The notes beneath the pieces are model-generated. The model saw nothing but the letters and a program-made list of their open reading frames with translations, did no database searches and had not been told where the DNA came from. A stretch of DNA of 64,000 bases from an uncultured Actinomycetota bacterium (GTDB taxonomy: Bacteria > Actinomycetota > Acidimicrobiia > Acidimicrobiales > Bog-793): NCBI GenBank assembly GCA_963758515.1, contig CAVWVO010000004.1, positions 1,513 to 65,512 of the forward strand, written 5' to 3'. Positions 10,413 to 25,380 of the stretch are shown here, in pieces (position 1 is the stretch's first letter; each line of letters starts with the position of its first letter). The position numbers and the translations under genes are program-made.

Positions 10413-11427
10413 GTGCGCACAGCAGGACATCGTCTCGTATCGGGGGTTGTTGGCCTGCTCGCGGGGGCTATGGCGATCGCCAGCTGCGGATCGACGACCG
10501 CAACTCCAAGCAGTACTTCGAGCGGATCACGTCTGTCAGGCACGCTCATCGTGTTCGGAGCAGGGACCCTCTCACAGCCTTTTGCTCAAGAGATCGCAGC
10601 CTTCAAACAAGCGAACCCGGCCGTGACGGTGCGCTCGCAGTTCGGCGCCAGCGGCAACATGACAAAGGACATCACCCAGCTGAAGGAGCCCGACGACGTG
10701 CTCGGCGTCGCCGACTACTCCCTCATCCCCTCGGAGATGTTCGGTACGGGATCAAAGCGTTTCGCGACCTGGTACATCGGCTTTGTCCGAAACGAGATCA
10801 CATTCGCCTACACGAGCCACAGCAAAGGCGCCGCCCAACTGACCTCGAAGAACTGGTACAAGATCCTTGCTGAGCCGGGCGTGCATATCGGACGTTCGAC
10901 CCCGGCGGCAGATCCCTCGGGTTACCAGATCCTGCAGATGCTGAAGCTCGCCGGGGGCTACTACCACGATCCCTCGCTTTCGGCTGACGTCCTGAAGAAC
11001 TCTCCGAAAGCGAGCGTCGCCGCCGAAGAGACCGCCTTGACCGCCGCTCTCCAGACAGGCCAGATCGACTACCTCGCCATCTACCGGTCAAGCGCCCTGG
11101 AGGACCACTTCGAGTACATCCACCTGCCCGACCAGATCAACCTGTCGAACCCCGCCTTCGCGAAGACGTACGCCGACCGTCACGGTGCAAGGCCCCACAG
11201 GGCCGACGACGGGCAAACCGATCGTCTATGCCCTCACCATCCCGACCAATGCTCCGAACCCGGCACTGGCCCGCAGCTTCGTCGCCTTCGTGCTCAGTTC
11301 GAAGGGGCAGGCGATCATGTCCTCGAATGGGTTCGTGACGATCTCCCCGGCGCTCGCGAGCAGCAAGAGCGCGCTTCCGTCTGCTCTGCGCTCCCTCACG
11401 GTGGCCTGGCCGAACCTCGCGGGATGA
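10413..11427 (+). pseudogene. Tungstate/molybdate-type ABC substrate-binding lipoprotein, +1 frameshift near 11178
   Basis: Signal plus lipobox (LAGAMAIASCGS) and a PBP fold. The frame changes at GCC GAC c GTC ACG GTG, and the C-terminal 80 aa (VQGPTGPTTGKPIVYALTIP...) continue in the frame of ORF 11185-11427. Confidence 0.75.
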
Positions 11428-12260
11428 TTGCCGCACGGCAGACCAGCCGTCGGCCCGCGTGGCCGTTCGGTGCCTTTCAGGCCCTCATGTGGGTGCTCGG
11501 AGGGCTGCTAATCGCATTCATCTTGGTGCCTGTCGTGCGGCTCGCGACGACGTCGTCTCTCGGAAGTCTCACTCATGCTGCCGAGAACGCCCAGATCCGC
11601 GACGCCATCCAGCTCAGCCTGCAGGATGCCGCCATCACCGCCGCCATCGCGACTGTCGTCGGTGTACCGCTCGCCTACGTCCTTGCCCGGAGGCGCTTTC
11701 GGGGCCGGAACCTCGTGCAGGCGATAGTCGACCTCCCCCTTGCTGTGCCGCACACCGTCGCCGGCATTGCCCTGCTCTTCGTCTTCGGGCGGACCGGTTG
11801 GGTCGGGGGACCGGCCGGTCACATCGGGATCTCCTTCTACGGCTCGCAGTGGGGGATCGTGGCGGCCATGCTGTTCGTGAGCGCCCCCTTTGCCGTCAAC
11901 AGCGCGAGAGTGGCACTCGAAGCAATCGATCCCAACATCGAGCGAGCTGCTCGAAGCCTCGGGGCCAGTCCTTCCTTCAGCTTTCGCCACGTCACCTTGC
12001 CGCTTGCCGCCCGTGGCGTGATGACCGGGGCGGTCCTCGTCTATGCGCGCTCGATCAGCGAGTTCGGCGCCGTCGTGATCCTCGCCTTCTACCCGGTGAC
12101 TGCTCCGGTGGAGGTCTACAACCTGTTCCTGCAGTCTGGGCTCGCCGAGTCGGCATCAGCGGCGGTGCTCTTGTTGTTCGTGTCTCTTGCCACCTTCCTC
12201 GTGCTCCGCACGCTCTCCTCGGGATGGCTGTTCGCCGGCGCTGACCGTGAGCGTGCCTGA
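11424..12260 (+). CDS. ABC transporter permease (molybdate/tungstate/sulfate type)
   Basis: ATGA start/stop overlap with the binding-protein gene. EAA-like loop IERAARSLGASPSFSFRHVTLPLA. Six TM-like segments. Confidence 0.85.
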   Translation: MIAARQTSRRPAWPFGAFQALMWVLGGLLIAFILVPVVRLATTSSLGSLTHAAENAQIRDAIQLSLQDAAITAAIATVVGVPLAYVLARRRFRGRNLVQAIVDLPLAVPHTVAGIALLFVFGRTGWVGGPAGHIGISFYGSQWGIVAAMLFVSAPFAVNSARVALEAIDPNIERAARSLGASPSFSFRHVTLPLAARGVMTGAVLVYARSISEFGAVVILAFYPVTAPVEVYNLFLQSGLAESASAAVLLLFVSLATFLVLRTLSSGWLFAGADRERA

Positions 12261-14172: not shown

Positions 14173-14239
14173 TCCGAGGTTGCTTGCGGAAGGGCGGGCA
14201 GATAGTCGTCTCGATGACGTCGGTCTCGCCCTGGCCACC

Positions 14240-14610
14240 GCGGCACAGACACGGCGACGCTGGAGCTACGTCAACGTGTTGGGTATCAAAGTTGGGTATC
14301 AACAGCCGCCTACTCACGCCAATGCGAGGCAGCGTGACAGACAGAAGCCCCAGTTCAAGCGGTTGTCGGCCGCCTGAAGCAACCCCCAGACAACCTGGAG
14401 AGGCTTTGCAAGCCGGGGGTCGCCGGTTCGAGCCCGGTCAGCTCCACTAAAGCCCCTGGTCAGAGGCCACTTATTGTTGGCTGTATAGTGACAAATACGG
14501 TGTTGGGATCAATCTGGGTGTCAACCAGGCGAGTTAGGCGCCGCACGGTGCAGCGCACGAAGCGGGAGCGACTGCCCCTGAACGGCACTTCGGGGCACCT
14601 CTGGGGCGCG
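14240..14610 (+). mobile_element. attP-like module A: paired 11-mers, conserved block, tRNA-Ala(UGC)-like 3' 45 nt, second 11-mer pair, integrase N-terminal remnant
   Basis: TTGGGTATCAA at 14279 and 14292. Core GGCTTTGCAAGCCGGGGGTCGCCGGTTCGAGCCCGGTCAGCTCCA at 14402-14446. TTGGGATCAA and TGGGTGTCAA at 14503 and 14515. Remnant ..RRRTVQRTKRE.. from about 14535. Confidence 0.6.
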
Positions 14611-15536
14611 CGGTGACCACCGCGTTATCGGCCACCGATCCAAGCGCAACGTCGAGAAGTTGCTCTGAGGTTTGAACGTCGCCGCTAAATTCCCGCCCGA
14701 ATCAGCCGCCGGTCATGGCTGCCTCTTCGGCGGTCTCGGAGCGGCTTTGGCTAATGACGAACCGACACTGCTCTCGCCAGGCACCTCACCCGCTCGGCGC
14801 CGGGGTCGACTGCTAGCCGCGCGCGCACGGAGGGCGTAGAGCGCTGATGCGGACCGTCGGGGCGGAACCCGAAAGTGAATCACCAGAAGGACCATCCCTA
14901 CTTTCGCCCTACTCTGTATGGCGGGCAGGCTGATCGCTCGGCCCTGCCCGGCGTGGGTGCTGTCACGAACACCCAGGTTTGATTCCGGCGCAGGCACCGC
15001 CGGAACAAGGGTGATTCCAAGGACTCAGCTTTGGGAAGGGTCGTCAGGCGTACGACGGAGTACCAGCGCTAACCATTATGTTATCTGCACGCCGTCGAAC
15101 GGTCATGAACGGCAGCGTCCGCGGGATATTCGCGGGATGCGACTTCCGCCGCTGTATAACGGCTTCAGGGCCTTCTCGTCGCAGTTTCGTCCGAGCCACG
15201 TCTGCAGGCCGAAGTGCCAGCTACGACACTTGGTTTGACGTCCAAGCTAACGCCCGCCGCGACCGATGCGACTGGCCGGAGGAGTACGTCCGGGGGAGCC
15301 GTCTAGCTGAGTCGCGCTCGGGATGGACGACCTCGGTCGATTTGTACAACGCCAGCCCTCGCGAGCGGCGCGGCAGCGCATCCTGCTGTGGCTCTATCGG
15401 CGAGCCGCTTCAGCTGGGCTTCGAGGGTGCTGATTTTACTCGACGAGAGTCGGTCGGAGCAGGAAAACCACTTTCAATGAGCGGCCTCGTGGCGTCGTGA
15501 CAGGATCGAGACCTCATGCCGTTGCTCTGGTCGGCT

Positions 15537-18005
15537 CTATACGTAGCCTCGCTTCTGCAAGACTTGCCAGGATATCCATCCTGGAACGATCGGCAGCCAG
15601 TAGGTGGACAGCCTGTAAACGAGTACAGCCGCGACGGCAGGCCCGGCGTGCATACCAACGCCGGTCAAGCCGGCGACCAAGGCCGCCTCGATCGCGCCGA
15701 GACCGCCCGGGGTAGGTGAGGCGGCAGCAATGGCAGCGGCACCCAGGTAGACCGCTCCGATCTCTTCGATCCCGACCCCGCCGCCGAATGCCTGGATCGA
15801 GGCCGCGAGGCCTGCGATGTACGCAAGAGTCACCAACGCAGAGCCGCCCACCAAAAGCGCCAGCTTGACAGGGCTGGCTGCGACAGTTCGCAGGCTGTCG
15901 GCACCCGATCTCAGGGCCGGCAGCACCCGGGTTGCTCCGAAGCTCCTACCCCGACTCGTGGCGAGCAACATTCCGACCAGTGCGGCTGCAACAGCGAGAA
16001 TGAGCAGCAGCTTGCTGGCTGCCGGCAGCTTGAAGGCGTGCGTCAGCCCACGGCTCGCCAATGTGAAGAAGATCACCATGAGGATCAAGTGAGCCACAAG
16101 TCCCACGAGCGCATTGACACCAACCGCGGCGATACCGGCACCGGGTGGGACACCCCTCTTTTGCAGGAATCGTGCGTTCAGCGCCATTCCGCCGATGTTG
16201 GCGGGCGAGACCCGGTTGACGAACGAGGATGCGGTCTGCGTCAGGGTCATGGGCCAGAACGGTATGGGTCCCGGCACGGCACCAATCAGCGCCACCGAAC
16301 TCGCAAGGTACGTCAAGGCGGATGCGGCGAGGATGACCGGCACCCAAATCCAGTGCGCCGACTGCAATGCCTGCCAGCTGCTTCCTACGTGGGCCAGCTG
16401 CGGCAGGATGAAATAGAAGGCACCGGCAGCGGCGGCGATTGCGAGCAGGTTCTTGAGCCGGACCCGCTGAAGCCGGGCCAACGGCTGATCACCGAGTCCA
16501 CCGGCCGCGGTGGCGGCTGCCCTGGTTTCCGCGAGCAGGCCATCGTTCCTCCCGATCGCCTGACGCGTGGCTGCCGACAGAGCCAGCGGCTGCAGCAACG
16601 GAACTGCGAGCGCCAGAGCTTCGGCGCCGACTACCGCCGCAGCGCTGGACACAGCTCTTTCCGCGCCGACCATCGTGGCCAACGACGCCAGTAGCTCGGC
16701 TATGTCAAGGTCCTTCTGTCGCCGGCTGGCGACCAGTTCCGAAAAACTGAAGTCGGTCAACCAAGGCACAAGGTCGCCGTCGACCATCACATTGGCCGCC
16801 CGCAGGGAGCGATGAGCGATCCCGGCGCGGTGCAGGCTGTCCACTTCGGTCCACAGCTGTCGGAGAAGGTCATCGCTGATCGCCTGCGAGGACAATTCGG
16901 CGAGCGAGGTGCCATCTATCCGCTCCATTACAAGCAGCGCCGTCCCCTCGCGGGCTTTGATAATCCGTTCGACATTGGGGACACGGACGCCGGCTCGCTC
17001 GGCTGACATGCCAACGAGGGCCTGGTGCTCGACCGCGCGAATCACCGCGGCGGAAGGCCATGTGTTGTCGACGTTGCGCAGCCGGACGAACCGATATGCC
17101 CGGTAGAGCAGGTCCGCATCACGTTGGTCCGAGCCGAGAGCCTTTATGAACAACCGGCGCCCGTCAGCGGCGACGGCCACGAACGGCCGGGAGCCTTTCG
17201 TATGAATATCGGCCGACTCGACGATGACGGTTGGAAGACCCGCGGACCGAAGCGCCTCCGCGATCCCGACCGGACCGATCCGAAGGTCAGGCACGCCGAA
17301 TGCCACCAGAACACCGGCGCCCACGCTCACCCCGACTGCGAGCGCGAGAAGCAGTTCGGCCGGCAGCACAGTGCCGGTAATGAGCCGGATCCCTACCATC
17401 GTGCTCACCGTTAGCCATGCCGTCCGGCGCCACGGACGGCACAGCCATGGCGCGAGGGCGACAGTGATCGCCGCCGCCGCGGCAAGCAGCGGCGGGTCTG
17501 GAAACCAGGCGCCGATCAGCCACGAGCCGTGTCCTGTGGTCAAGGCCAATGCGTGCGGGTGCTTATCGCCGAACAGATACAAGATTCCTGACAGCGCCGC
17601 ACCGGCTGCAACAGCGCCGGCCGTCAGGCCGGCCAGGAGACGGAACCGGCGGTGGAGGAGGACGCCGGCGACGATCCCCGCGGCAGCGACGACGAATGCA
17701 ACTTGCACAAGACCAATCAACAGCCTTCCAGTCGAATCAGATCCGAGCCAGGACACGGTGCGCGCGCCGTTCCTGACGAGCTGACCGGGGGCCACCGCGA
17801 TTGCCGCGAGTGTGCCGATTAGAACCAGTCCGCTTACGATGAGCCGGATGACATCGCCCGGATGCCGGTAACGGGACGACGGGACAAGCTGAAACGCCTG
17901 GGTTCTGACTAGATCTGCCGTGTCGGGCCCCGAGTCATCGGTCATCGTGAGCTCGCCTTCAGGAGGGATCTTCGCGTCACGCTGGGTCTGGTCCGTGCTG
18001 GTCAT
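15537..18005 (-). CDS. Polytopic membrane protein with a central kinase-like domain (catalytic Asp position is Ser) and a C-terminal MprF-type flippase-like (LPG_synthase_TM/UPF0104) domain
   Basis: Intact 822-aa ORF. The start ATG at 18005 overlaps the PAP2 stop (ATGA). Kinase-like loop GIAHRSLRAANVMV and LTDFSF. C-terminal SPTPGGLGAIEAALVAGL motif typical of the flippase-like TM region. Confidence 0.8.
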   Translation of the reverse strand: MTSTDQTQRDAKIPPEGELTMTDDSGPDTADLVRTQAFQLVPSSRYRHPGDVIRLIVSGLVLIGTLAAIAVAPGQLVRNGARTVSWLGSDSTGRLLIGLVQVAFVVAAAGIVAGVLLHRRFRLLAGLTAGAVAAGAALSGILYLFGDKHPHALALTTGHGSWLIGAWFPDPPLLAAAAAITVALAPWLCRPWRRTAWLTVSTMVGIRLITGTVLPAELLLALAVGVSVGAGVLVAFGVPDLRIGPVGIAEALRSAGLPTVIVESADIHTKGSRPFVAVAADGRRLFIKALGSDQRDADLLYRAYRFVRLRNVDNTWPSAAVIRAVEHQALVGMSAERAGVRVPNVERIIKAREGTALLVMERIDGTSLAELSSQAISDDLLRQLWTEVDSLHRAGIAHRSLRAANVMVDGDLVPWLTDFSFSELVASRRQKDLDIAELLASLATMVGAERAVSSAAAVVGAEALALAVPLLQPLALSAATRQAIGRNDGLLAETRAAATAAGGLGDQPLARLQRVRLKNLLAIAAAAGAFYFILPQLAHVGSSWQALQSAHWIWVPVILAASALTYLASSVALIGAVPGPIPFWPMTLTQTASSFVNRVSPANIGGMALNARFLQKRGVPPGAGIAAVGVNALVGLVAHLILMVIFFTLASRGLTHAFKLPAASKLLLILAVAAALVGMLLATSRGRSFGATRVLPALRSGADSLRTVAASPVKLALLVGGSALVTLAYIAGLAASIQAFGGGVGIEEIGAVYLGAAAIAAASPTPGGLGAIEAALVAGLTGVGMHAGPAVAAVLVYRLSTYWLPIVPGWISWQVLQKRGYV

Positions 18006-18769
18006 CTTCGGGCCCCCGTAACTCGATTGGGAAGGACGCGCAGGCTCGGGCCGCGACGGGCCAGGTGTCTCCTGTCGTTCCATCGCCGCTGAAGCAGTTC
18101 GGTTACAAGGGCGGTCACCAAGGCGCAGGACGTGCCGAGGAGAATCCCGGCAGTGGCGTCAGAGAGCCAGTGGGCAGCTAGGTAGGCTCTGGAGAGCCCC
18201 ATCAAGATCGCGAACGTCACCGCGACCGCGCCCCAAAGAGCGCGCCGCCTACCCGCGGGCACCAAGGCGATGACAGCCGCGACGACAGTTACCGAGGCGG
18301 CGACGGCGTGTCCCGACGGGAACGACCCACCGCTCGTCGCAACGAGGGAACCGAACGGTCTCGGCCGGTCATAGACGTCTTTCAGCGAGCCGATGAGGAG
18401 CTCCGACGTCACCACCGCCGCGGTGAAGGCGGCCAGGTGCCACCACCGGCGCTTCAGGGCCAGGAAGCCGGCCATCGCTATCCGCACGGGCAGGGTGACG
18501 TAAACAAGCCCGAGAACGTTGAAGACCTTTGCGATTCCCGTCAGCGGCGCTGTCCGGCCGGAGACCATAAGGCGCAGCCACCAATTGTCGATGTGCTGAA
18601 TCCTGGCCAGCGTGCCATGGACAGCGACCAGGACGAACAGCATGGCCGTGAGCGTGACTACCACGGCGGTAACGAGAGCGGCTCGCCGCGGGCTGGCGAG
18701 GAGCGCTTCCTCCTTCCACGGGGTCGTGGCCGGCCCGCTTAGCCCGGACATGAGGCGCCTCGTCCGCAC
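18002..18769 (-). CDS. PAP2-family phosphatase (membrane)
   Basis: KDVYDRPRP, SFPSGHAV and SRAYLAAHWLSD are the three canonical PAP2 motifs. Start is the GTG at 18769 or the ATG at 18751. Confidence 0.85.
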   Translation of the reverse strand: MRTRRLMSGLSGPATTPWKEEALLASPRRAALVTAVVVTLTAMLFVLVAVHGTLARIQHIDNWWLRLMVSGRTAPLTGIAKVFNVLGLVYVTLPVRIAMAGFLALKRRWWHLAAFTAAVVTSELLIGSLKDVYDRPRPFGSLVATSGGSFPSGHAVAASVTVVAAVIALVPAGRRRALWGAVAVTFAILMGLSRAYLAAHWLSDATAGILLGTSCALVTALVTELLQRRWNDRRHLARRGPSLRVLPNRVTGARR

Positions 18770-20952
18770 AAGGAAAGGCCTTCTGTGCGCCGGACGTAGT
18801 CGACGAGCACAGACCGAGGTGTGAAAGCCAACGCGCCATCAATGGCAGCCACGAGTTTCCGGGATGCACCCGGCGCGAAGCGGAACCAGTAGGTGGCGCA
18901 CCCTCCGGAGAAGGTGTAGTAGCGAAGATCGGAGTACTGCGTCTTACGGCTAGGCGGATCCTCGAACTGGCGCGTACCGGGCTGGTCGGAGGGGATCTGC
19001 TGGGCGCCCGAGGTGTCGCAGGTCGCAGTGAGGGTTACGGTGACTGCTCGCGGCCCTGCGCGATCGGAGTCCAGCGAGAGGCTGGCCCTCCCGCTGGCGA
19101 TGTCCGTGCCGCCAATGCTCCAGCCCGTCGGGAGCGCGGCGATGCAGGGCAGCAGGGCAGCGGACGGGACTGCCTGGGCGCTCAGGATCATCGAATGGCC
19201 GGTGCCGCAGCTGGGGGCGTAGGCGCCCAGATTCTCGCCTGCCGGGAAGAAGGCATTTCCCGTTTCCCCCACGGCGGCGGTGATGACGGCGAGCATCGCG
19301 GCCGCCAGAGCGACCCGCCCGATGTTCCAGCGTTGCAGCGCGATCGGCGGCCGCTGCGGGGCGAGGGCGCGGAATTCGCCGAGCAGGTCGCGCTGGTCCC
19401 GTTTCATGAAGGCGCGCAGTTGGGTCGGGCTGGCGGCCCCGCGGGTGGCGGCGAATGCTTCAGCTAGCTCGGCTTCGGTGAAGTACGCCAGCGCCCGCCG
19501 GTAGACCCGCTGCGGGTCGGTGCGCACCGCGAGGAGGAGCATCATGTTGCCCAGGTCGACCGCCTGCCGCCATGGTGACGGGCGCACCTGGACGAAGGCC
19601 ACGTCGACCAGCAGCAGCTCTCCGGAGCGGACCATCAGGTTGCCTGGTTTGATGTCGCGGTGGGCGATCCCAGCGTCCCACAGCGTGCGGATCAGCCGCA
19701 GTCCCTGGTCGATCACCGTGTCGTCGACGTCGGCTTCGCCGATTTCGACGGCGCCGGTATGGAATTCGGTGACCAGCATGTACTCGCGCTCGGGCGTGAT
19801 CTCCACGATGCCGTATGGCTGGGCCGTGCGGACCCCGATGTCCTGCAGCAGGCGCAGGGCATAGTCCTCGTACTCGACCAGGCGCCGCACGGTCTGGAAG
19901 GGGTGCTCGTCCTCCAGGGAGCCGTACAGGATGGTCCGCCACAGCTTGTACCAGCGGTCGGCGCGGACGTGACCCTTGGTGTAGAGCTTGGCGAACACGA
20001 ACTCCTCCGGGCCGCCTTCGACTCGCAGCCGCAACGGCGTGGAGCCGGCGGAGGACTCCAGGCCGACCGGCTTGATCTCGGCCACCGCGAGGCCGAGCTG
20101 GTCGCGCACGGCCTGGCGGATCGCCTGCCCCCGCCGGCCGGTCACGTCCACGTGCGCGGTGCGGCCGCGCCGGTAGGCGACGGGGAACGCCTCGTTCGGG
20201 GTGAAGTACCGAAACGCGGTGACCGCGATCGCAACGGCGATCGCCACGGCGAGCAACGCATCACCGGGGTGATCGACACCGAGGTACAGGCGAGCCAGAC
20301 AGAAGACGGCGACCACGGCGACCACCGCAGCCTTTGTGTAGGTGCGGACGTGGCCGGGCACGGCCAGGCAGTAGACGGCGCCCATCAAGAAGATCGTCAG
20401 GACCGCTGCCGAGGGGGACACCCCGGAGTACCCGCCCCAGCTGCCGATGATCGTTACGCCGTACGGGCGTGGTCTGGACAGCCCGAAGTAGATCGATGTC
20501 CCGGCAATCTCCAGGAACAACACGCTTCCCAGGAACACCAGCAAGTGCCGCCAGCGGCGGAACGCCATCGTCAGGGCGACCACCGACAGGCCGAGCGCGG
20601 TGGCCCCCCAGCCGGAGCCCGCTCCGTTGATCCCGTTGGCCACATCGGTCAGCCACGGCGTCCGTATTCCGGCCAGGAGACGGAGCACCCACGTGCTTGC
20701 CCGGTCATCGATCCGGAGCCACGGCGTGTGCTGGGACGCCAGGAACGCGCCGGCGAGCACCACAGCCCCAAGGATCAGCCATGCCGTGGTGCTGAACGAG
20801 AACGCGCGCGGCAGGGGCGGGGGGGCGCCGGTGGGGCGGCGCTGGCGCGCTGTTGGCAGCACGGCGGGACCCGGCACTGGGCCGACTACGGAATCTAGTG
20901 TTGTAGCGGCAACGGTGTTCTCGCTCGTGGACTCGGTCTTGGAAGTGTTCAT
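18739..20952 (-). CDS. Membrane protein with an N-terminal degenerate PAP2-like domain, a kinase-like domain, one TM segment and a Cys-containing extracytoplasmic domain
   Basis: Intact ORF. ATG at 20952 is preceded by GGGAGA. LSRPRPYG / VSPSAA (His lost) / ARLYLGVDHPGD. FVFAKLY.., IAHRDIKPGNLMV, LLVDVAF. Late TM RVALAAAMLAVITAAVG followed by about 160 aa containing 5 Cys. Confidence 0.8.
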   Translation of the reverse strand: MNTSKTESTSENTVAATTLDSVVGPVPGPAVLPTARQRRPTGAPPPLPRAFSFSTTAWLILGAVVLAGAFLASQHTPWLRIDDRASTWVLRLLAGIRTPWLTDVANGINGAGSGWGATALGLSVVALTMAFRRWRHLLVFLGSVLFLEIAGTSIYFGLSRPRPYGVTIIGSWGGYSGVSPSAAVLTIFLMGAVYCLAVPGHVRTYTKAAVVAVVAVFCLARLYLGVDHPGDALLAVAIAVAIAVTAFRYFTPNEAFPVAYRRGRTAHVDVTGRRGQAIRQAVRDQLGLAVAEIKPVGLESSAGSTPLRLRVEGGPEEFVFAKLYTKGHVRADRWYKLWRTILYGSLEDEHPFQTVRRLVEYEDYALRLLQDIGVRTAQPYGIVEITPEREYMLVTEFHTGAVEIGEADVDDTVIDQGLRLIRTLWDAGIAHRDIKPGNLMVRSGELLLVDVAFVQVRPSPWRQAVDLGNMMLLLAVRTDPQRVYRRALAYFTEAELAEAFAATRGAASPTQLRAFMKRDQRDLLGEFRALAPQRPPIALQRWNIGRVALAAAMLAVITAAVGETGNAFFPAGENLGAYAPSCGTGHSMILSAQAVPSAALLPCIAALPTGWSIGGTDIASGRASLSLDSDRAGPRAVTVTLTATCDTSGAQQIPSDQPGTRQFEDPPSRKTQYSDLRYYTFSGGCATYWFRFAPGASRKLVAAIDGALAFTPRSVLVDYVRRTEGLSLCGRGASCPG

Positions 20953-21252
20953 GTCGATCTCCCTGGAGTGTTCAATGGATTGAGGGGGGTTGGTCATCGG
21001 ATCGGGCACTTAAGGACGCGAGGCCATGCGACGCATCGGTGGAGTGGTGACTACATCCAGGGCCACCTTCTGCTTGGGGACACCCTGAGCCGGGAGCAGA
21101 CGATTGGCGAGGTGTTGGACGTTCTCGTGGGCACCAAGCGTCGCCTGCGGTCACGCCGCCAATGAAGTCCGACGCACCCGGACGGGCAGCTCGACCCATC
21201 ACGCGCCCGTGTCGGGGAATCCTCCCAAGATTCCCCGACACGGCGCGGGCGA

Positions 21253-23316
21253 TCAGTGCAGGGCCGGCTCCAGGTGCTCCATCTTCGACAGATCCACCAC
21301 CGGAGCGGCCAGACCCACCGTCGGAGCAGCCGTTCCCCGGCGGGCGGCCCGCTCGGTCCAGATGTCGAGCACGAGCAGACTCAGGTTCGACACGACCGCC
21401 GCACCGATGATCGTCGTGATCAACGCCATGAGCCCGCTGGTCGCGTGGAAACCGAGTGCGGCTCCGACCACCGCACCGACACCCGCGGCACCGATGCCCT
21501 TGGCCCGCATCGCCTTCGGTGTGTCGGCGCGGACCCAGCCGGCGTAGAGCCCGAGCCAGATCGGCACCGCGATCGAGACCACCGTCACGAGCGGGTCGTC
21601 GAGCGGCCGGCTCGGCCAGAACCGCAGTAGCAACAGTGCGCCGAGGAACCAGCCGCCGAGTCCGAACACGATCGGGCCGGCCGAACGGATCCATGCGCCC
21701 GTCTTGCGGCCCGTACCGCCCCGGCGGCGGATCCGGATCGCCAACACCACGAGCCAGAGCACTGCCAACAAGGCGAAGCCGACCATTGCCCCAAGGAGGT
21801 CCCTGGCGATCCCTGTCTGTGTGGACGGTGTCACGAAGCTGACGACGTTCGGGGTGTAGCGGGACGTGTCGACCTGACCGGTGGCGTAGAACTTGGTCAG
21901 CAACTGCGTGCCGGCTTTCGGCTCGTAGTACCAGAAGTCGTCCACGTGCCCGAGCCCGGACAGGATGACCTGATGCCCGTTGGAAAGGTGCGGCAGCAGC
22001 TCCTTCGTGGCGTTCTGGGCCGGCGTCTCGAAGTCGAGCGTCCCGCCGACGAGCAGCGTCGGGACGCTCGAGTTCTGCACGCTCGTGTACTGGTTCTCGC
22101 CCGGGTTGGCCGGCCAGGCGTGCACAAGGCCTCCTGCCCCCCAGATGAAGTCCGCGAGGGGATTTCCGATGATCGAGCCCCGGTCAGCGCCGGAGCTGTA
22201 ATAGCGCTCGACGGGGTGGGCGTCGGCCATCCCGATGCTTGCAAACTCGCCCCAGACGAACGACTGGGGGAGGACCAAATGGGTCATCATCGATAGAAAC
22301 CACAGGCCGCTCGGGTCACCCTGCGCGGCGGAGATCCACGAGTCGAGGGTCGTCGGCCCGGACAGTTCCGAAGCCTGCGCGGTCGAATACGTGAGTCCGA
22401 GGAACGTCCCGACCCGGACGTTGCCCGGCTCGATCGGCAGGGATAACCAACTGCTCGGCATGTGGGCGGCCGTGTGCTGCATGCTGGCGGCGAGGTTTCC
22501 GGTGCGGGCGCGGCAGGAAGGCTGCTTCGCGCACAGCGCCGAGTAACGCTCGATCCCCTGATCGATCTCGGCTCCGCTGTAGAGGAAGTTCCCGGGCGGG
22601 TTGACCCCGACCATCACCGAGCGATCGACAGTGCTCGGGTACCGCCACTGGTAGACCATCCCGAGACGGGTCCCGGCGCTCTCGCTGAACAGGTCGATGC
22701 GCTTGTAGCCGAGGGCGACGCGAGCGGCGTCGATGTCGGCGGCCTGCTCTGCCAGCGTGTAGCCGGCAAGGTCTACGCCGTCTCGCTCAAGCCGCTTCGC
22801 GCACGCGGCGAAGGCCTGCGAGTACGCGGTGAGCGACGCTTTGCCGAGGTAGTCGGCGGAGTTGTTCAGCGCCGCCGTCACCTCGGGACAGTTCAGCACC
22901 GAAGAGCCGTCGACGCCGCGGTAGCCGACCATGACGACATCGTGCTTAGCGGCCAGGCGGTTCGCTTGGGGAAACGTCATGTTGGTTATGCCCGGGCCGC
23001 CGCTCAGATGGAAGATTGGCGCCAGCGGGTGAGATGAGCGAGCCAGGATCCGGATCACCGGCAGCGCGATCAGCCGCGACTTCGAGCTCGCTCGGTTCTC
23101 CGGCACGACCAACGTGCCGCAGTCGGCGGGCATCGCGCCCTGCTCGCTCGCGTAAGTGCACGCGTGCATGGTCAGGTCACCGGCCTTGGCTCCGGCGGGC
23201 ACTGAGGCGGCGGCGTCGCCGGGTGCGAACCGGATGTACATCAGGCCGAACAACATCACCCCGATGACCACCAGGGCAACGATCCGAGTGGGGGTGTAGA
23301 TCCGCTTTGCCTTCAT
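21253..23316 (-). CDS. Membrane-anchored alpha/beta hydrolase (TAP/tripeptidyl-aminopeptidase-like) with a C-terminal multi-TM region
   Basis: N-terminal TM anchor, HLSGGPG oxyanion region, nucleophile elbow FSESAGT. The last ~190 aa form about 5 hydrophobic spans. ATG at 23316 has GAAGGA 10 nt upstream. Confidence 0.8.
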   Translation of the reverse strand: MKAKRIYTPTRIVALVVIGVMLFGLMYIRFAPGDAAASVPAGAKAGDLTMHACTYASEQGAMPADCGTLVVPENRASSKSRLIALPVIRILARSSHPLAPIFHLSGGPGITNMTFPQANRLAAKHDVVMVGYRGVDGSSVLNCPEVTAALNNSADYLGKASLTAYSQAFAACAKRLERDGVDLAGYTLAEQAADIDAARVALGYKRIDLFSESAGTRLGMVYQWRYPSTVDRSVMVGVNPPGNFLYSGAEIDQGIERYSALCAKQPSCRARTGNLAASMQHTAAHMPSSWLSLPIEPGNVRVGTFLGLTYSTAQASELSGPTTLDSWISAAQGDPSGLWFLSMMTHLVLPQSFVWGEFASIGMADAHPVERYYSSGADRGSIIGNPLADFIWGAGGLVHAWPANPGENQYTSVQNSSVPTLLVGGTLDFETPAQNATKELLPHLSNGHQVILSGLGHVDDFWYYEPKAGTQLLTKFYATGQVDTSRYTPNVVSFVTPSTQTGIARDLLGAMVGFALLAVLWLVVLAIRIRRRGGTGRKTGAWIRSAGPIVFGLGGWFLGALLLLRFWPSRPLDDPLVTVVSIAVPIWLGLYAGWVRADTPKAMRAKGIGAAGVGAVVGAALGFHATSGLMALITTIIGAAVVSNLSLLVLDIWTERAARRGTAAPTVGLAAPVVDLSKMEHLEPALH

Positions 23317-23442
23317 GACGAGCACGTCCTTCGGTCCTGCGGAAAACCGGGTGAATCCCGCTACACGAACCGTAAAGACCGGGCCCGGCGGAGTCGTCGG
23401 CCGCGAGTGCGATTGGCGCTCGTCCTGCGGGCGGATTCGAGA

Positions 23443-23518: not shown

Positions 23519-24178
23519 TTAGGTGGGTGTGGCTCCCGGTACGAGCCCGGTCTGGTAGGCGAGCACGACGACTTGGACGCGGTCGCGGAGGTTGAGTTTC
23601 TGGAGGATGTGTGAGACGTGGGTCTTGACGGTCGTCTCGCTGATATAGAGCTCCGCGCCGATCTCTGCGTTGGACAGGCCGCGGGCGATGAGCCGGACGA
23701 TGTCTTGCTCGTGTGCGGTGAGCTCGTCGAGTTCTTTCGGCGACTCGTGGCGAGGGATGCGGGTGAATTGACTGATCACGCGTTTGAGGATCGCGGGTGA
23801 GAGGAGCGCGTCTCCAGCGGCGACGGTGCGGACCGCCTCGATCAGCTGTTCGGGGGGGTCGTCTTTGAGCACGAATCCGCTCGCGCCGGCGCTGAGTGCT
23901 TCGTAGACGTATTCGTCGAGTCCGAAGGTGGTGAGGATCAGGATCCGGGCGGTGTTGTCGGTGGCAATGATCCGGCGGGTGGCCTGGAGCCCGTCGAGCT
24001 CTGGCATGCGGATGTCCATCAGGACCACGGTCGGGTCAAATTGCGCCGCCTTGGCCACCGCTTCCAGTCCGTTGCTTGCTTCGGCGACGACTTCCATGTC
24101 CTGTTCGCCGGCGAGCAGCATCCGGAAGCCGGCGCGGACCATGGCCTGGTCGTCGGCGATGAGGACTCGGATCGTCAT
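23519..24178 (-). CDS. NarL/LuxR-family response regulator
   Basis: IRVLIADDQAMVRAGFRMLL, DIRMPELDG, and a C-terminal LuxR HTH LSNAEIGAELYISETTVKTHVSHIL. Confidence 0.9.
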   Translation of the reverse strand: MTIRVLIADDQAMVRAGFRMLLAGEQDMEVVAEASNGLEAVAKAAQFDPTVVLMDIRMPELDGLQATRRIIATDNTARILILTTFGLDEYVYEALSAGASGFVLKDDPPEQLIEAVRTVAAGDALLSPAILKRVISQFTRIPRHESPKELDELTAHEQDIVRLIARGLSNAEIGAELYISETTVKTHVSHILQKLNLRDRVQVVVLAYQTGLVPGATPT

Positions 24179-25380
24179 GGCCGGTCCGGGGTGAGTGGGA
24201 GGCGGGCGCTGAGCGTGAACCCGCCGCCGTTTGTCCTGCCTGCGGTCATCTCGCCGCCGTAGAGTTTGACGCGCTCGCGGATGCCGATCAGTCCGTGGCC
24301 ATGGCCGTCGCTCGGCGTCACGCAGGTGCCGTCGTCGCGCACTTCGATCCCTACCTCGTCCGGCGCATACCGGACGGTGACCTCCGCGTGGCTGGCGCGG
24401 GCGTGCTTGAGCGCGTTGGTGAGACCCTCCTGAACAATCCGATACGCGGAGAGGTCGATCCCTGGCGGGAGCGGGAAACGCTCCCCGTCGAGGTGCAGCT
24501 CGACGGGGAGCCCGGCACGGCCGATCTCCTTCACCAACGAGTCGAGGCCGTCAAGGCCGGGCTGAGGCGCGAGCTCTAGGCCGTCGCCGTCACGGCGCAT
24601 CACACTGAGCAGACGGCGCATCTCGGTCAGCGCGCCGCGCCCGGCCTGCTCGACACTCCTGAGGGCATCGCGATCCTCGGCCATCGCGTCGAGGCGGTGC
24701 CTGACAGCGCCGACTTGCAGCACCATCACGCTGACGGCGTGCGCGACGATGTCGTGCAGCTCGCGCGCGATCCGCGCCCGCTCCTCGGCCACAGCGACGC
24801 GCGTCGCTGCATCCCGCTCCTGCTCGGCCTGTGTCGCATGTGCCTCCGCCACCTCGGCCTGCTCTTCGGCCTGTGTCGCATGTGACTCCGCCACCTCGGC
24901 CTGCTCGGCCCGCGCGCGGACGGCAAGGCCTGCTACCAAGGCGACGGCGAAGTCGATGGGAATGAAGACGAGCTGGAAGACCGAGTGTCCGGGGATGTTG
25001 TAGAGGAGGGTCGCCGCAGCACCGACCACGATCGCCAGTCCGAGGCCGGCCTGGCGGACGTCCCGAAGGTTCCCGAGCAGGAATGCGGCCACCAGGCCGA
25101 GCAGGAAGATGGACTCGGGGTACGGGATCAGCAGCGGGTCGACGAACGAGATTCCCGCGGCCAAAAGCCAGTACCCCGCCGGTCCGGCAAATGGAAACCA
25201 TCGCCGCGCGAACAGGGGTAGCACCAGGATCGCGAGCGCGGGAAGGCAGAACCACAGCGTCGTTGTCGGAGCTCCGGACGAGCCGCGTCCGAGCACCACG
25301 TCGAGCATCGCCATGATCGCAAGCAGCGCGATCAGCAGGTCGAACCAGTACGTGCGGGCGAGATGTTCGATTCGGCTCAC
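24175..25380 (-). CDS. Sensor histidine kinase (HisKA_3 type, intramembrane-sensing architecture)
   Basis: About 160 aa of closely packed TM helices with no obvious extracytoplasmic domain. H-box RIARELHDIVAH, then HATPase motifs. ATGA overlap with the regulator gene. Confidence 0.9.
   Translation of the reverse strand: MSRIEHLARTYWFDLLIALLAIMAMLDVVLGRGSSGAPTTTLWFCLPALAILVLPLFARRWFPFAGPAGYWLLAAGISFVDPLLIPYPESIFLLGLVAAFLLGNLRDVRQAGLGLAIVVGAAATLLYNIPGHSVFQLVFIPIDFAVALVAGLAVRARAEQAEVAESHATQAEEQAEVAEAHATQAEQERDAATRVAVAEERARIARELHDIVAHAVSVMVLQVGAVRHRLDAMAEDRDALRSVEQAGRGALTEMRRLLSVMRRDGDGLELAPQPGLDGLDSLVKEIGRAGLPVELHLDGERFPLPPGIDLSAYRIVQEGLTNALKHARASHAEVTVRYAPDEVGIEVRDDGTCVTPSDGHGHGLIGIRERVKLYGGEMTAGRTNGGGFTLSARLPLTPDRP
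24826..24909. repeat. Intragenic 42-nt tandem duplication (2 units) in the kinase linker
   Basis: GGCCTGTGTCGCATGTG(C/A)CTCCGCCACCTCGGCCTGCTC.. occurs at 24826 and 24868. It encodes the duplicated stretch AEQAEVAESHATQAEEQAEVAEAHATQAE (14-aa period). Confidence 0.8.

Follow-up and report, generated by a model that had tools for sequence, protein, structure and literature searches.

We investigated a cluster of three genes in a 64,000-nucleotide stretch of DNA from an uncultured Actinomycetota bacterium of the order Acidimicrobiales (contig CAVWVO010000004.1, positions 1,513 to 65,512 of the forward strand; hereafter the window, with positions counted from its first letter). Three co-directional open reading frames (ORFs) occupy the minus strand at 15537-21009 of the window, which has a G+C content of ~65%. 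These are K1 (18739..20952, minus strand; 737 amino acids, aa), with a dead PAP2-like membrane domain, a complete kinase-like domain, one transmembrane (TM) helix and a Cys-rich C-terminal domain; a stand-alone PAP2 gene (18002..18769, minus strand; 255 aa), with all three PAP2 catalytic motifs; and K2 (15537..18005, minus strand; 822 aa), with a dead PAP2-like domain, a kinase-like domain devoid of the catalytic Asp and a flippase-like (LPG_synthase_TM / PplT) domain. An identical (100%) 822-aa protein for K2 is present in NCBI, and K1 has homologues of ~729 aa that are 82-93% identical.

The ATG of K1 at 20952 is preceded by GGGAG. The PAP2 gene has two candidate starts, GTG at 18769 or ATG at 18751, both within the 3' end of K1, which gives an overlap of 31 or 13 nucleotides, and the TGA of the PAP2 gene overlaps the ATG of K2 as ATGA. 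Gene overlaps are a usual sign of translational coupling, and the arrangement is best read as a single membrane operon in which the translation of K1, PAP2 and K2 is coupled. The motifs on which a first-pass annotation of this DNA had relied were all recovered at their minus-strand coordinates, including FVFAKLY (aa 318-324), IAHRDIKPGNLMV (aa 429-441, the catalytic-loop stretch) and LLVDVAF (aa 447-453) in K1, and GIAHRSLRAANVMV (aa 395-408) and LTDFSF (aa 416-421) in K2.

Paralogy and fold of the kinase-like domains

The kinase-like domains of K1 (aa ~270-535; 19348..20145, minus strand) and K2 (aa ~260-505; 16491..17228, minus strand) are homologous, with 26% identity over 217 aa in BLASTP (E=2e-10) and an HHalign probability of 99.7% between their families (E=3e-27, 230 columns). 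The paralogy that had been proposed from the motifs therefore holds, and it spans the PAP2-like and kinase-like domains together, over ~480 aa.

We modelled both proteins with AlphaFold2 from shallow alignments, and obtained mean predicted local distance difference test (pLDDT) values of 49.8 and 58.6, with values of 70-94 over the kinase core of K1 and 72-93 over that of K2. Foldseek searches of the PDB with E<=0.001 returned 718 matches for K1 and 466 for K2, and the 50 listed for each were all kinases, including RIOK1, Aurora, PknB and PRPK/Bud32. The best target-normalised TM-score (template modelling score) among the listed K2 matches was 0.61, to PRPK. The kinase fold suggested for the two domains is borne out by the confident parts of the models, which match RIOK1, PknB and PRPK/Bud32, and the models support a bilobal kinase fold in both K1 and K2.

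Matches of the family profile to Hanks-type kinases (1967 PDB sequences at E<=0.01) are confined to the region that begins at the catalytic loop and ends at the DFG motif. Profile comparison indicated that an activation segment and APE region are absent from the kinase-like domains of K1 and K2, which share a family-specific helical region after the DFG-equivalent position. Because they have no activation segment or APE motif, the two domains are minimal kinases of the Bud32, RIO and Kdo kind. Scores against individual kinase families were low: K1 reached 20.2 bits against Pfam Pkinase PF00069 (E=4e-4; cut-off 31.7), 18.2 against Bud32 TIGR03724 (cut-off 125) and 13.6 against RIO1 (cut-off 480), and did not match Pfam Kdo/WaaP PF06293. 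K2 likewise fell below the cut-offs for PF00069 (1.3e-6, 28.5 bits, cut-off 31.7) and the NCBIfam Bud32 model TIGR03724 (2.6e-12, 46.6 bits, cut-off 125), and exceeded that of PF06293 (25.8 bits, cut-off 21.3), over profile positions 69-191 of 207 only.

A complete kinase-like domain and a pseudokinase

K1 contains the Lys, Glu, H-x-D, Asn and metal-binding Asp expected of a catalytically competent member of the protein kinase-like group (K322, E362, H431-R-D433, N438 and D450), along with K435 in the catalytic loop. Across 82 K1 relatives, K322, H431, R432, D433, K435, N438 and D450 were invariant or nearly so, and E362 was invariant. The catalytic loop HRDIKPGN (19639..19662, minus strand) occurs as IAHRDIKPGN or VAHRDIKPGN in 119 of 120 homologues, and conservation within the protein peaks in the kinase domain, at a mean identity of 88%.

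K2 retains K288, N405 and D418, and carries a remnant of the catalytic loop, HRSLRAAN (16791..16814, minus strand), in which Ser400 takes the place of the catalytic Asp. Among the closest 120 database homologues, 117 contained the motif, with Ser at this position in 83, Ala in 19, Gly in 14, Cys in one and Asp in none; DFSF was present in 118 of the 120. The 38 K2 relatives recovered from related loci gave the same picture (Ser in 36, Gly in two), with K288, N405 and D418 invariant, and the mean identity of the kinase-like domain was 64%. The contrast between HRD in K1 and HRS in K2, which the first-pass annotation had put forward, is thus conserved as regards the Asp, present in 82 of 82 K1 relatives and 0 of 117 K2 homologues; the Ser itself varies. 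Since the position reads Ser, Ala, Gly or Cys and never Asp, the loss of the Asp is fixed, without selection for Ser as such; the conserved property is a small side chain other than Asp.

We additionally noted Gln at position 328 of K2. The Glu aligned to K1 E362 is present in 104 of 110 family representatives and replaced by Gln in the subclade of the window's K2, the true helix-C Glu being one of two neighbouring Glu residues assigned from sequence alone. Defining a pseudokinase as a kinase fold without at least one of the beta3 Lys, HRD Asp and DFG Asp, K2 fits this class through its conserved loss of a catalytic residue, and lacks the residues of a catalytically competent member both at Ser400 and at a conserved helix-C Glu. 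The missing Lys after the HRS triplet had also been taken as a sign of inactivity, wrongly: in relatives of K2 with a full catalytic set the loop is HRDLRxxN, with Arg in place of the Lys that follows HRD, so the absence of this Lys says nothing about activity.

The loop of the K2 family (HRDLRxxN, or HRSLRAAN in the window) resembles the tyrosine-kinase type, such as HRDLAARN in EGFR, one of the matches of the family profile, and that of K1 (HRDIKPGN) is of the Ser/Thr type. Src-family kinases read HRDLRAAN, and the tyrosine-kinase-like look of the K2-family loop may be coincidental.

An intact PAP2 phosphatase, two degenerate PAP2 domains and a flippase-like domain

The product of the middle gene matches Pfam PAP2 PF01569 well above its gathering cut-off (9.3e-18, 64.7 bits, cut-off 27.2). 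Its K-x6-RP, PSGH and SR-x5-H-x3-D motifs are intact, and are kept in 47-48 of 48 relatives; a genuine PAP2 enzyme is accordingly encoded between K1 and K2, as had been predicted. Its scores against the NCBIfam undecaprenyl-diphosphatase and PgpB models were weak, far under the equivalog cut-offs.

The PAP2-like domain of K1 (aa ~55-255; 20188..20790, minus strand) was delimited by Pfam, HHalign, tblastn and column counts. It scores 24.1-27.0 bits against PF01569, below the cut-off of 27.2 (E 3e-5), and is related to the family of the adjacent stand-alone PAP2 with an HHalign probability of 98% (E=1e-13) and to the neighbouring gene itself by 29% identity over 145 aa in tblastn (E=4e-7). It is thus most similar to the adjacent stand-alone PAP2. 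We found RPRP at aa 160-163, VSPSAA at 178-183 and DHPGD at 227-231. Tyr stands in for the C1 Lys, no C2 His remains, and Asp occupies the position of the nucleophilic C3 His; RP, the Arg of C3 and the last Asp are retained, and mean identity among relatives is 74%. The canonical PAP2 mechanism proceeds through a phospho-histidine. Because both catalytic His residues are gone, the domain is unable to hydrolyse by this mechanism, in agreement with the loss of catalysis suspected in the first-pass annotation.

A second PAP2 domain, fully degenerate, forms the N-terminal membrane domain of K2 (aa ~46-240; 17286..17870, minus strand). It had no match in a direct comparison with Pfam, PF01569 included, and was recognised by HHalign comparison with the PAP2 family (probability 96%, E=1e-9) and with the N-terminal domain of K1 (probability 94%), and by BLASTP against the intact PAP2 domains of the three-domain relatives described below (32% identity over 232 aa, E=2.5e-12). 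All the PAP2 catalytic residues are gone from it. K1 and K2 had been described as fused to different lipid-handling domains, which is correct in that only K2 has a flippase-like domain, but K2 also carries a dead PAP2 domain; the unit common to the two proteins is therefore PAP2-like plus kinase-like.

The flippase-like domain of K2 (15579..16448, minus strand) comprises its C-terminal 290 aa. It matches LPG_synthase_TM PF03706 (7.3e-34, 118 bits, cut-off 33.4) and TIGR00374 (59.8 bits, cut-off 43.2), and reaches 62 bits against the MprF model NF033480, for which the equivalog cut-off is 600; no PF09924 domain was found in K2. The C-terminal domain of K1 (aa ~575-737; 18742..19230, minus strand) follows a TM helix at aa ~542-572. 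It is rich in beta-strands and contains 5-6 conserved Cys, of which C582, C603, C645, C685 and C729 are invariant, and has no Pfam match even at E<=5. This domain presumably lies outside the cytoplasm.

A family of three-domain proteins with correlated losses

We searched 1.8 billion representative proteins exhaustively and identified 5914 relatives of K2, of which 1137 had E<=1e-30. In 17 of 110 full-length family representatives, the columns of the PAP2 motifs read KRP, PSGH and R-H-D. A search seeded with P0313, one of these 17, returned at least 120 clusters, nearly all with precomputed Pfam PAP2 and LPG_synthase_TM annotations and most, more than 100, also with Pkinase, and HRDxxxxN, PSGH and R-x5-H-x3-D occurred together in 112 of the 120 three-domain members listed. 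The few that are named come from metagenome-assembled genomes (MAGs) of Chloroflexi/Anaerolineae, Acidimicrobiia and Actinomycetes. Because intact members carry all three domains, the basic architecture of the family is PAP2, kinase and flippase-like, in that order, and K1 and K2 descend from this large uncharacterised family.

One such protein is OQB27646.1 (Chloroflexi bacterium ADurb.Bin180), automatically named '3-deoxy-D-manno-octulosonic-acid kinase'. The three-domain proteins are homologous to K2 from end to end at 33-45% identity, with 50% in the kinase domain and 32% in the N-terminal domain, and their kinase domain is 33% identical to that of K1. They keep PSGH, R-H-D and HRD-N-D in one chain, whereas in the window the live kinase and the live PAP2 are encoded by separate genes.

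We identified extensive losses of catalytic residues within the family. The full kinase pattern (Lys, Glu, His-Arg-Asp, Asn, Asp and a helix-F-like Asp) was present in 35 of the 110 representatives, and many of the others had lost several residues. His398 was invariant, and the helix-F-like Asp434 was Asp in 108 and Glu in the other two, so the scaffold has apparently been retained. By a looser test, requiring Lys, Asp, Asn and Asp, the kinase was intact in 13 of 17 representatives with an intact PAP2 domain and in 25 of 93 with a dead one (Fisher odds ratio 8.8; p=1.6e-4, indicative only, as the 110 representatives are phylogenetically non-independent). This correlated decay suggests that the two chemistries may serve one process. 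Both N-terminal domains were degenerate in 68 of the 110.

The residue before the catalytic-loop Asn (position 404 of K2, nucleotides 16794-16796) was acidic in 24 of 59 representatives without the catalytic Asp and in 2 of 51 that keep it, and in the former may act as a relocated catalytic base. We sought such a compensating residue in the K2 of the window and rejected it: position 404 is Ala, Ser, Thr or Gly within its clade, and no other new acidic residue is found there. As a separate observation, four giant family members (P0256, P0267, P0283 and P0305; 1557-1978 aa) contain two tandem K2-type units per chain, which could be real fusions or gene-calling read-through.

Conservation of the gene cluster

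We identified 76 related loci in a scan of one genome per species. Nearly all were labelled as MAGs of Actinomycetes, Actinomycetota, Streptosporangiaceae or Acidimicrobiaceae, and they derived mostly from projects on soil and peat; three had other labels, Acidobacteriaceae twice and an archaeon once. Multiple copies of K1 per genome were common. Counting clusters with enough flanking sequence to be judged, K1-PAP2-K2 was the order in 24, as in the window, and K2-K1-PAP2, with or without further copies of K1 and PAP2, in 13. Smaller numbers had K2-K1 (five), K1-PAP2 (four) or K1-PAP2-K2-K1 (one), and K1 stood alone in 13. The association of the genes survives changes in gene order, which argues for functional linkage. 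Together with the gene overlaps, this synteny suggests that K1 and K2 may act as a couple of kinase and pseudokinase, as the first-pass annotation had supposed.

Clustering the ORFs of the 76 loci gave no universal partner beyond the three genes. A P-type cation ATPase (Cation_ATPase_N/C, E1-E2), a second PAP2 of 265 aa and an ORF of ~650 aa with no assigned function recur beside one subgroup of K1 only, 88-91% identical to the K1 of the window (loci L001, L003, L004, L006, L010, L012, L018, L040 and L053). An intact three-domain protein (L080:4427-6988) is likewise flanked by a P-type ATPase, as well as by an MprF gene and a gene resembling monogalactosyldiacylglycerol (MGDG) synthase. Through such neighbours, the family may be connected with the homeostasis of cations or of membrane charge.

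Surroundings of the cluster in the window

No further copies of the module were found within the window by tblastn, and a survey for RNA genes, tRNAs, promoters and terminators around the operon gave nothing informative. Downstream of K2, ~1.36 kb (14173-15536) contain short ORFs only, at 63% G+C. Neither tRNA genes nor Rfam families were matched there, and the 76 related loci contain nothing similar to it, whether compared as nucleotides or in translation. Upstream lie a 690-aa alpha/beta hydrolase (21253-23325, minus strand; Abhydrolase_1 and TAP-like) with a hydrophobic C-terminal third, and the overlapping genes of a LuxR-type response regulator (23519-24178, minus strand) and a HisKA_3 histidine kinase (24175-25380, minus strand). 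Two-component genes of this kind occur near only a few of the related loci. We considered the alpha/beta hydrolase, the two-component pair, TauE and an ATP-binding cassette (ABC) transporter as possible parts of the module, and rejected them, as they are not conserved alongside it. A 615-aa ORF on the plus strand (10413-12260) combines SBP_bac_11 solute-binding and BPD_transp_1 ABC permease domains and runs into the start of the next gene, which encodes an ATPase; this could be a true fusion or two genes read through in frame.

A split three-domain protein as the preferred interpretation

We propose, with a probability of about 0.5, that K1, PAP2 and K2 represent a three-domain protein split over three genes, with one live copy of each activity, acting on a phosphorylated membrane lipid. 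K1 would provide the complete kinase domain, with a dead PAP2-like anchor before it and, after it, a TM helix and a Cys-rich outer domain; the middle gene would provide the only complete PAP2 active site of the module, facing outward; and K2 would provide the flippase-like domain, behind its dead PAP2-like and Asp-less kinase-like domains. Phosphorylation of a lipid at the inner face would be followed by its transfer across the membrane through the flippase-like domain of K2; at the outer face, the lipid would lose its phosphate or serve in phosphotransfer. In K2, the Lys, Asn and Asp that serve to bind nucleotide and metal persist, and the K2 pseudokinase would be a nucleotide-binding partner or regulator of K1, not an enzyme. 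The proposal thus predicts a contact between K1 and K2, a membrane topology, a lipid substrate and a direction of transport.

As regards topology, the termini of the six-helix bundle of known PAP2 enzymes are cytoplasmic and their active site faces outward. The kinase domains, which follow a PAP2-type six-helix bundle, would be cytoplasmic, and the active site of the stand-alone PAP2 and the C-terminal domain of K1 would face outward. As regards chemistry, flippase-like domains of the PF03706 type are typically joined to, or encoded alongside, cytoplasmic enzymes that modify lipid head groups, the lipid being moved outward afterwards, such as in MprF (bioRxiv 10.1101/2022.03.11.483950), and the flippase-like domain of GpgSDF is paired with a head-group-modifying enzyme (PMC12713373). 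Because of this usual company, we favour a cycle of head-group phosphorylation, translocation and dephosphorylation.

Several observations weigh against this interpretation. The loop HRDIKPGN of K1 is typical of Ser/Thr protein kinases, and a protein substrate is therefore equally compatible. Confidence in the AlphaFold2 models is low outside the kinase cores, the C-terminal domain of K1 included, so the topology can only be predicted from general knowledge of PAP2 enzymes and from the conserved Cys. The partnership is neither universal nor obligatory, as K1 is solitary in the 13 complete contexts noted above; two degenerate K2-type proteins of other lineages are also solitary, without K1 or PAP2, and the three intact three-domain proteins that we examined stand alone, with no informative conserved neighbours. 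We accordingly rejected a universal form of complementation, in which each degenerate K2-type protein would need an adjacent K1 and PAP2. Because degenerate proteins elsewhere stand alone, K1 is not a general partner of dead K2-type proteins.

We weighed three other explanations, of which signalling of the receptor type, a possible though distinctly less probable one, is the strongest. K1 would be a membrane Ser/Thr kinase that detects an external signal by way of its dead PAP2-like pocket and Cys-rich ectodomain, and would phosphorylate the K2 pseudokinase, switching the flippase-like domain on or off, much as PknB reportedly phosphorylates the pseudokinase domain of the flippase MviN in mycobacteria. 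The Ser/Thr protein-kinase consensus in the K1 loop and the match of the family profile to the HRD and DFG core of Hanks-type kinases are consistent with this, as is the order of kinase, TM helix and outer domain in K1, which recalls receptor kinases, and MviN provides a precedent for regulation by a pseudokinase fused to a flippase. However, both domains are without the activation segment, APE motif and substrate-binding lobe, and are closest to Bud32, RIO and Kdo kinases; no FHA-domain or phosphatase partner lies nearby; and simple regulation leaves the joint loss of kinase and PAP2 residues in the family unexplained.

We consider it unlikely that the genes are not coupled at all, and are neighbouring paralogues produced by local duplication, with the N-terminal domains of K2 serving as inert spacers of the flippase and K1 acting independently. 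The overlaps between the genes, the persistence of their association despite altered gene order and the invariance of the nucleotide-binding residues of K2 despite the loss of its Asp are difficult to reconcile with this, even if solitary degenerate K2-like proteins, the prevalence of representatives degenerate in both N-terminal domains, and the solitary and multiple copies of K1 all point towards it. More doubtful still is that K2 remains an enzyme by non-canonical catalysis without the HRD Asp. It does retain Lys, Asn and the metal-binding Asp, and the acidic residue four positions downstream in other Asp-less members suggests that the base may move; the clade of the window has no such residue there or elsewhere, its Asp position varies between Ser, Gly, Ala and Cys, and the second conserved helix-C Glu is Gln in its subclade.

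The preferred interpretation, of a split protein acting on a membrane lipid, can be carried further, to a view that we hold improbable as a whole: the ancestral three-domain protein and its split form would each be a self-contained shuttle for lipid-linked phosphate. At the inner face, the kinase would transfer a phosphate from ATP to a membrane lipid, with the conversion of polyprenyl phosphate to polyprenyl diphosphate as a candidate reaction; the flippase-like domain would move the lipid out; and the outward-facing PAP2 would hydrolyse the phosphate or pass it to an acceptor in the envelope, in this lineage with the pseudo-kinase and pseudo-phosphatase domains holding the three-protein machine together. 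If true, this would be a dedicated phosphorylation route outside the cytoplasm, where ATP is absent.

Flippase-like domains of the MprF type are widespread, and the lipid substrate is known for few. A family that joins such a domain to a kinase and a PAP2 phosphatase, with a natural split variant, thus offers a testable handle on the role of the module. The cluster also provides a clear bacterial example of pseudoenzymes, with one pseudokinase and two pseudo-phosphatases that are strongly constrained and lie beside active paralogues. If the lipid-phosphate cycle holds, it would be a new transmembrane phosphate route in abundant uncultured soil Actinomycetota.

Relationship to known systems

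Each part of the module can be assigned by sequence to a known superfamily. Literature searches found no study of the PAP2-kinase-flippase-like architecture, of its pseudoenzyme states, of the K1 family or of the three-gene arrangement. At the level of sequence, it is well supported that a single membrane module here unites a kinase, a pseudokinase and pseudo-phosphatases.

The kinase-like domains have their best sequence and fold neighbours in Bud32/PRPK, RIO and Kdo/WaaP, which have a short C-lobe and no activation segment, as here. They differ in that K1 and K2 score far beneath the Bud32 and RIO equivalog cut-offs, in that the Bud32, RIO and Kdo families read HGD where this family has HRD, and in that those families have neither a membrane-embedded context nor the family-specific helical C-terminal extension. 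The middle gene is similar to PgpB, BcrC and LpxT in carrying all three PAP2 catalytic motifs, but is far from reaching the NCBIfam equivalog cut-offs, and the PAP2 copies in K1 and K2, unlike these enzymes, are pseudo-phosphatases.

The C-terminus of K2 resembles the flippase domain of MprF and the PplT proteins (UPF0104, YbhN, TIGR00374), matching both PF03706 and TIGR00374; in contrast to MprF, K2 has no aminoacyl-phosphatidylglycerol (PG) synthase domain. The fusion of protein-kinase domains to the N-terminus of PplT in Actinobacteria is reported in one sentence of a preprint on PplT, which makes no mention of PAP2, of pseudokinase status or of a partner kinase (bioRxiv 10.1101/2022.03.11.483950).

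Two further systems invite comparison by their design. MviN (MurJ) of Mycobacterium tuberculosis reportedly has an intracellular pseudokinase domain and is regulated by PknB and FhaA. Likened by description, it is similarly an actinobacterial lipid flippase with a cytoplasmic pseudokinase domain and an active membrane kinase; however, it belongs to the MOP superfamily and not to PF03706, has no PAP2, and its kinase is not an adjacent paralogue. The pseudokinase STRAD-alpha, which reads HRS at the catalytic-loop motif, pairs with the active kinase LKB1, and so resembles K2 in having lost the catalytic Asp and kept nucleotide-binding residues beside an active kinase. STRAD-alpha and LKB1 are eukaryotic, soluble and of unrelated origin, and allosteric activation of K1 by K2 would be an analogy only.

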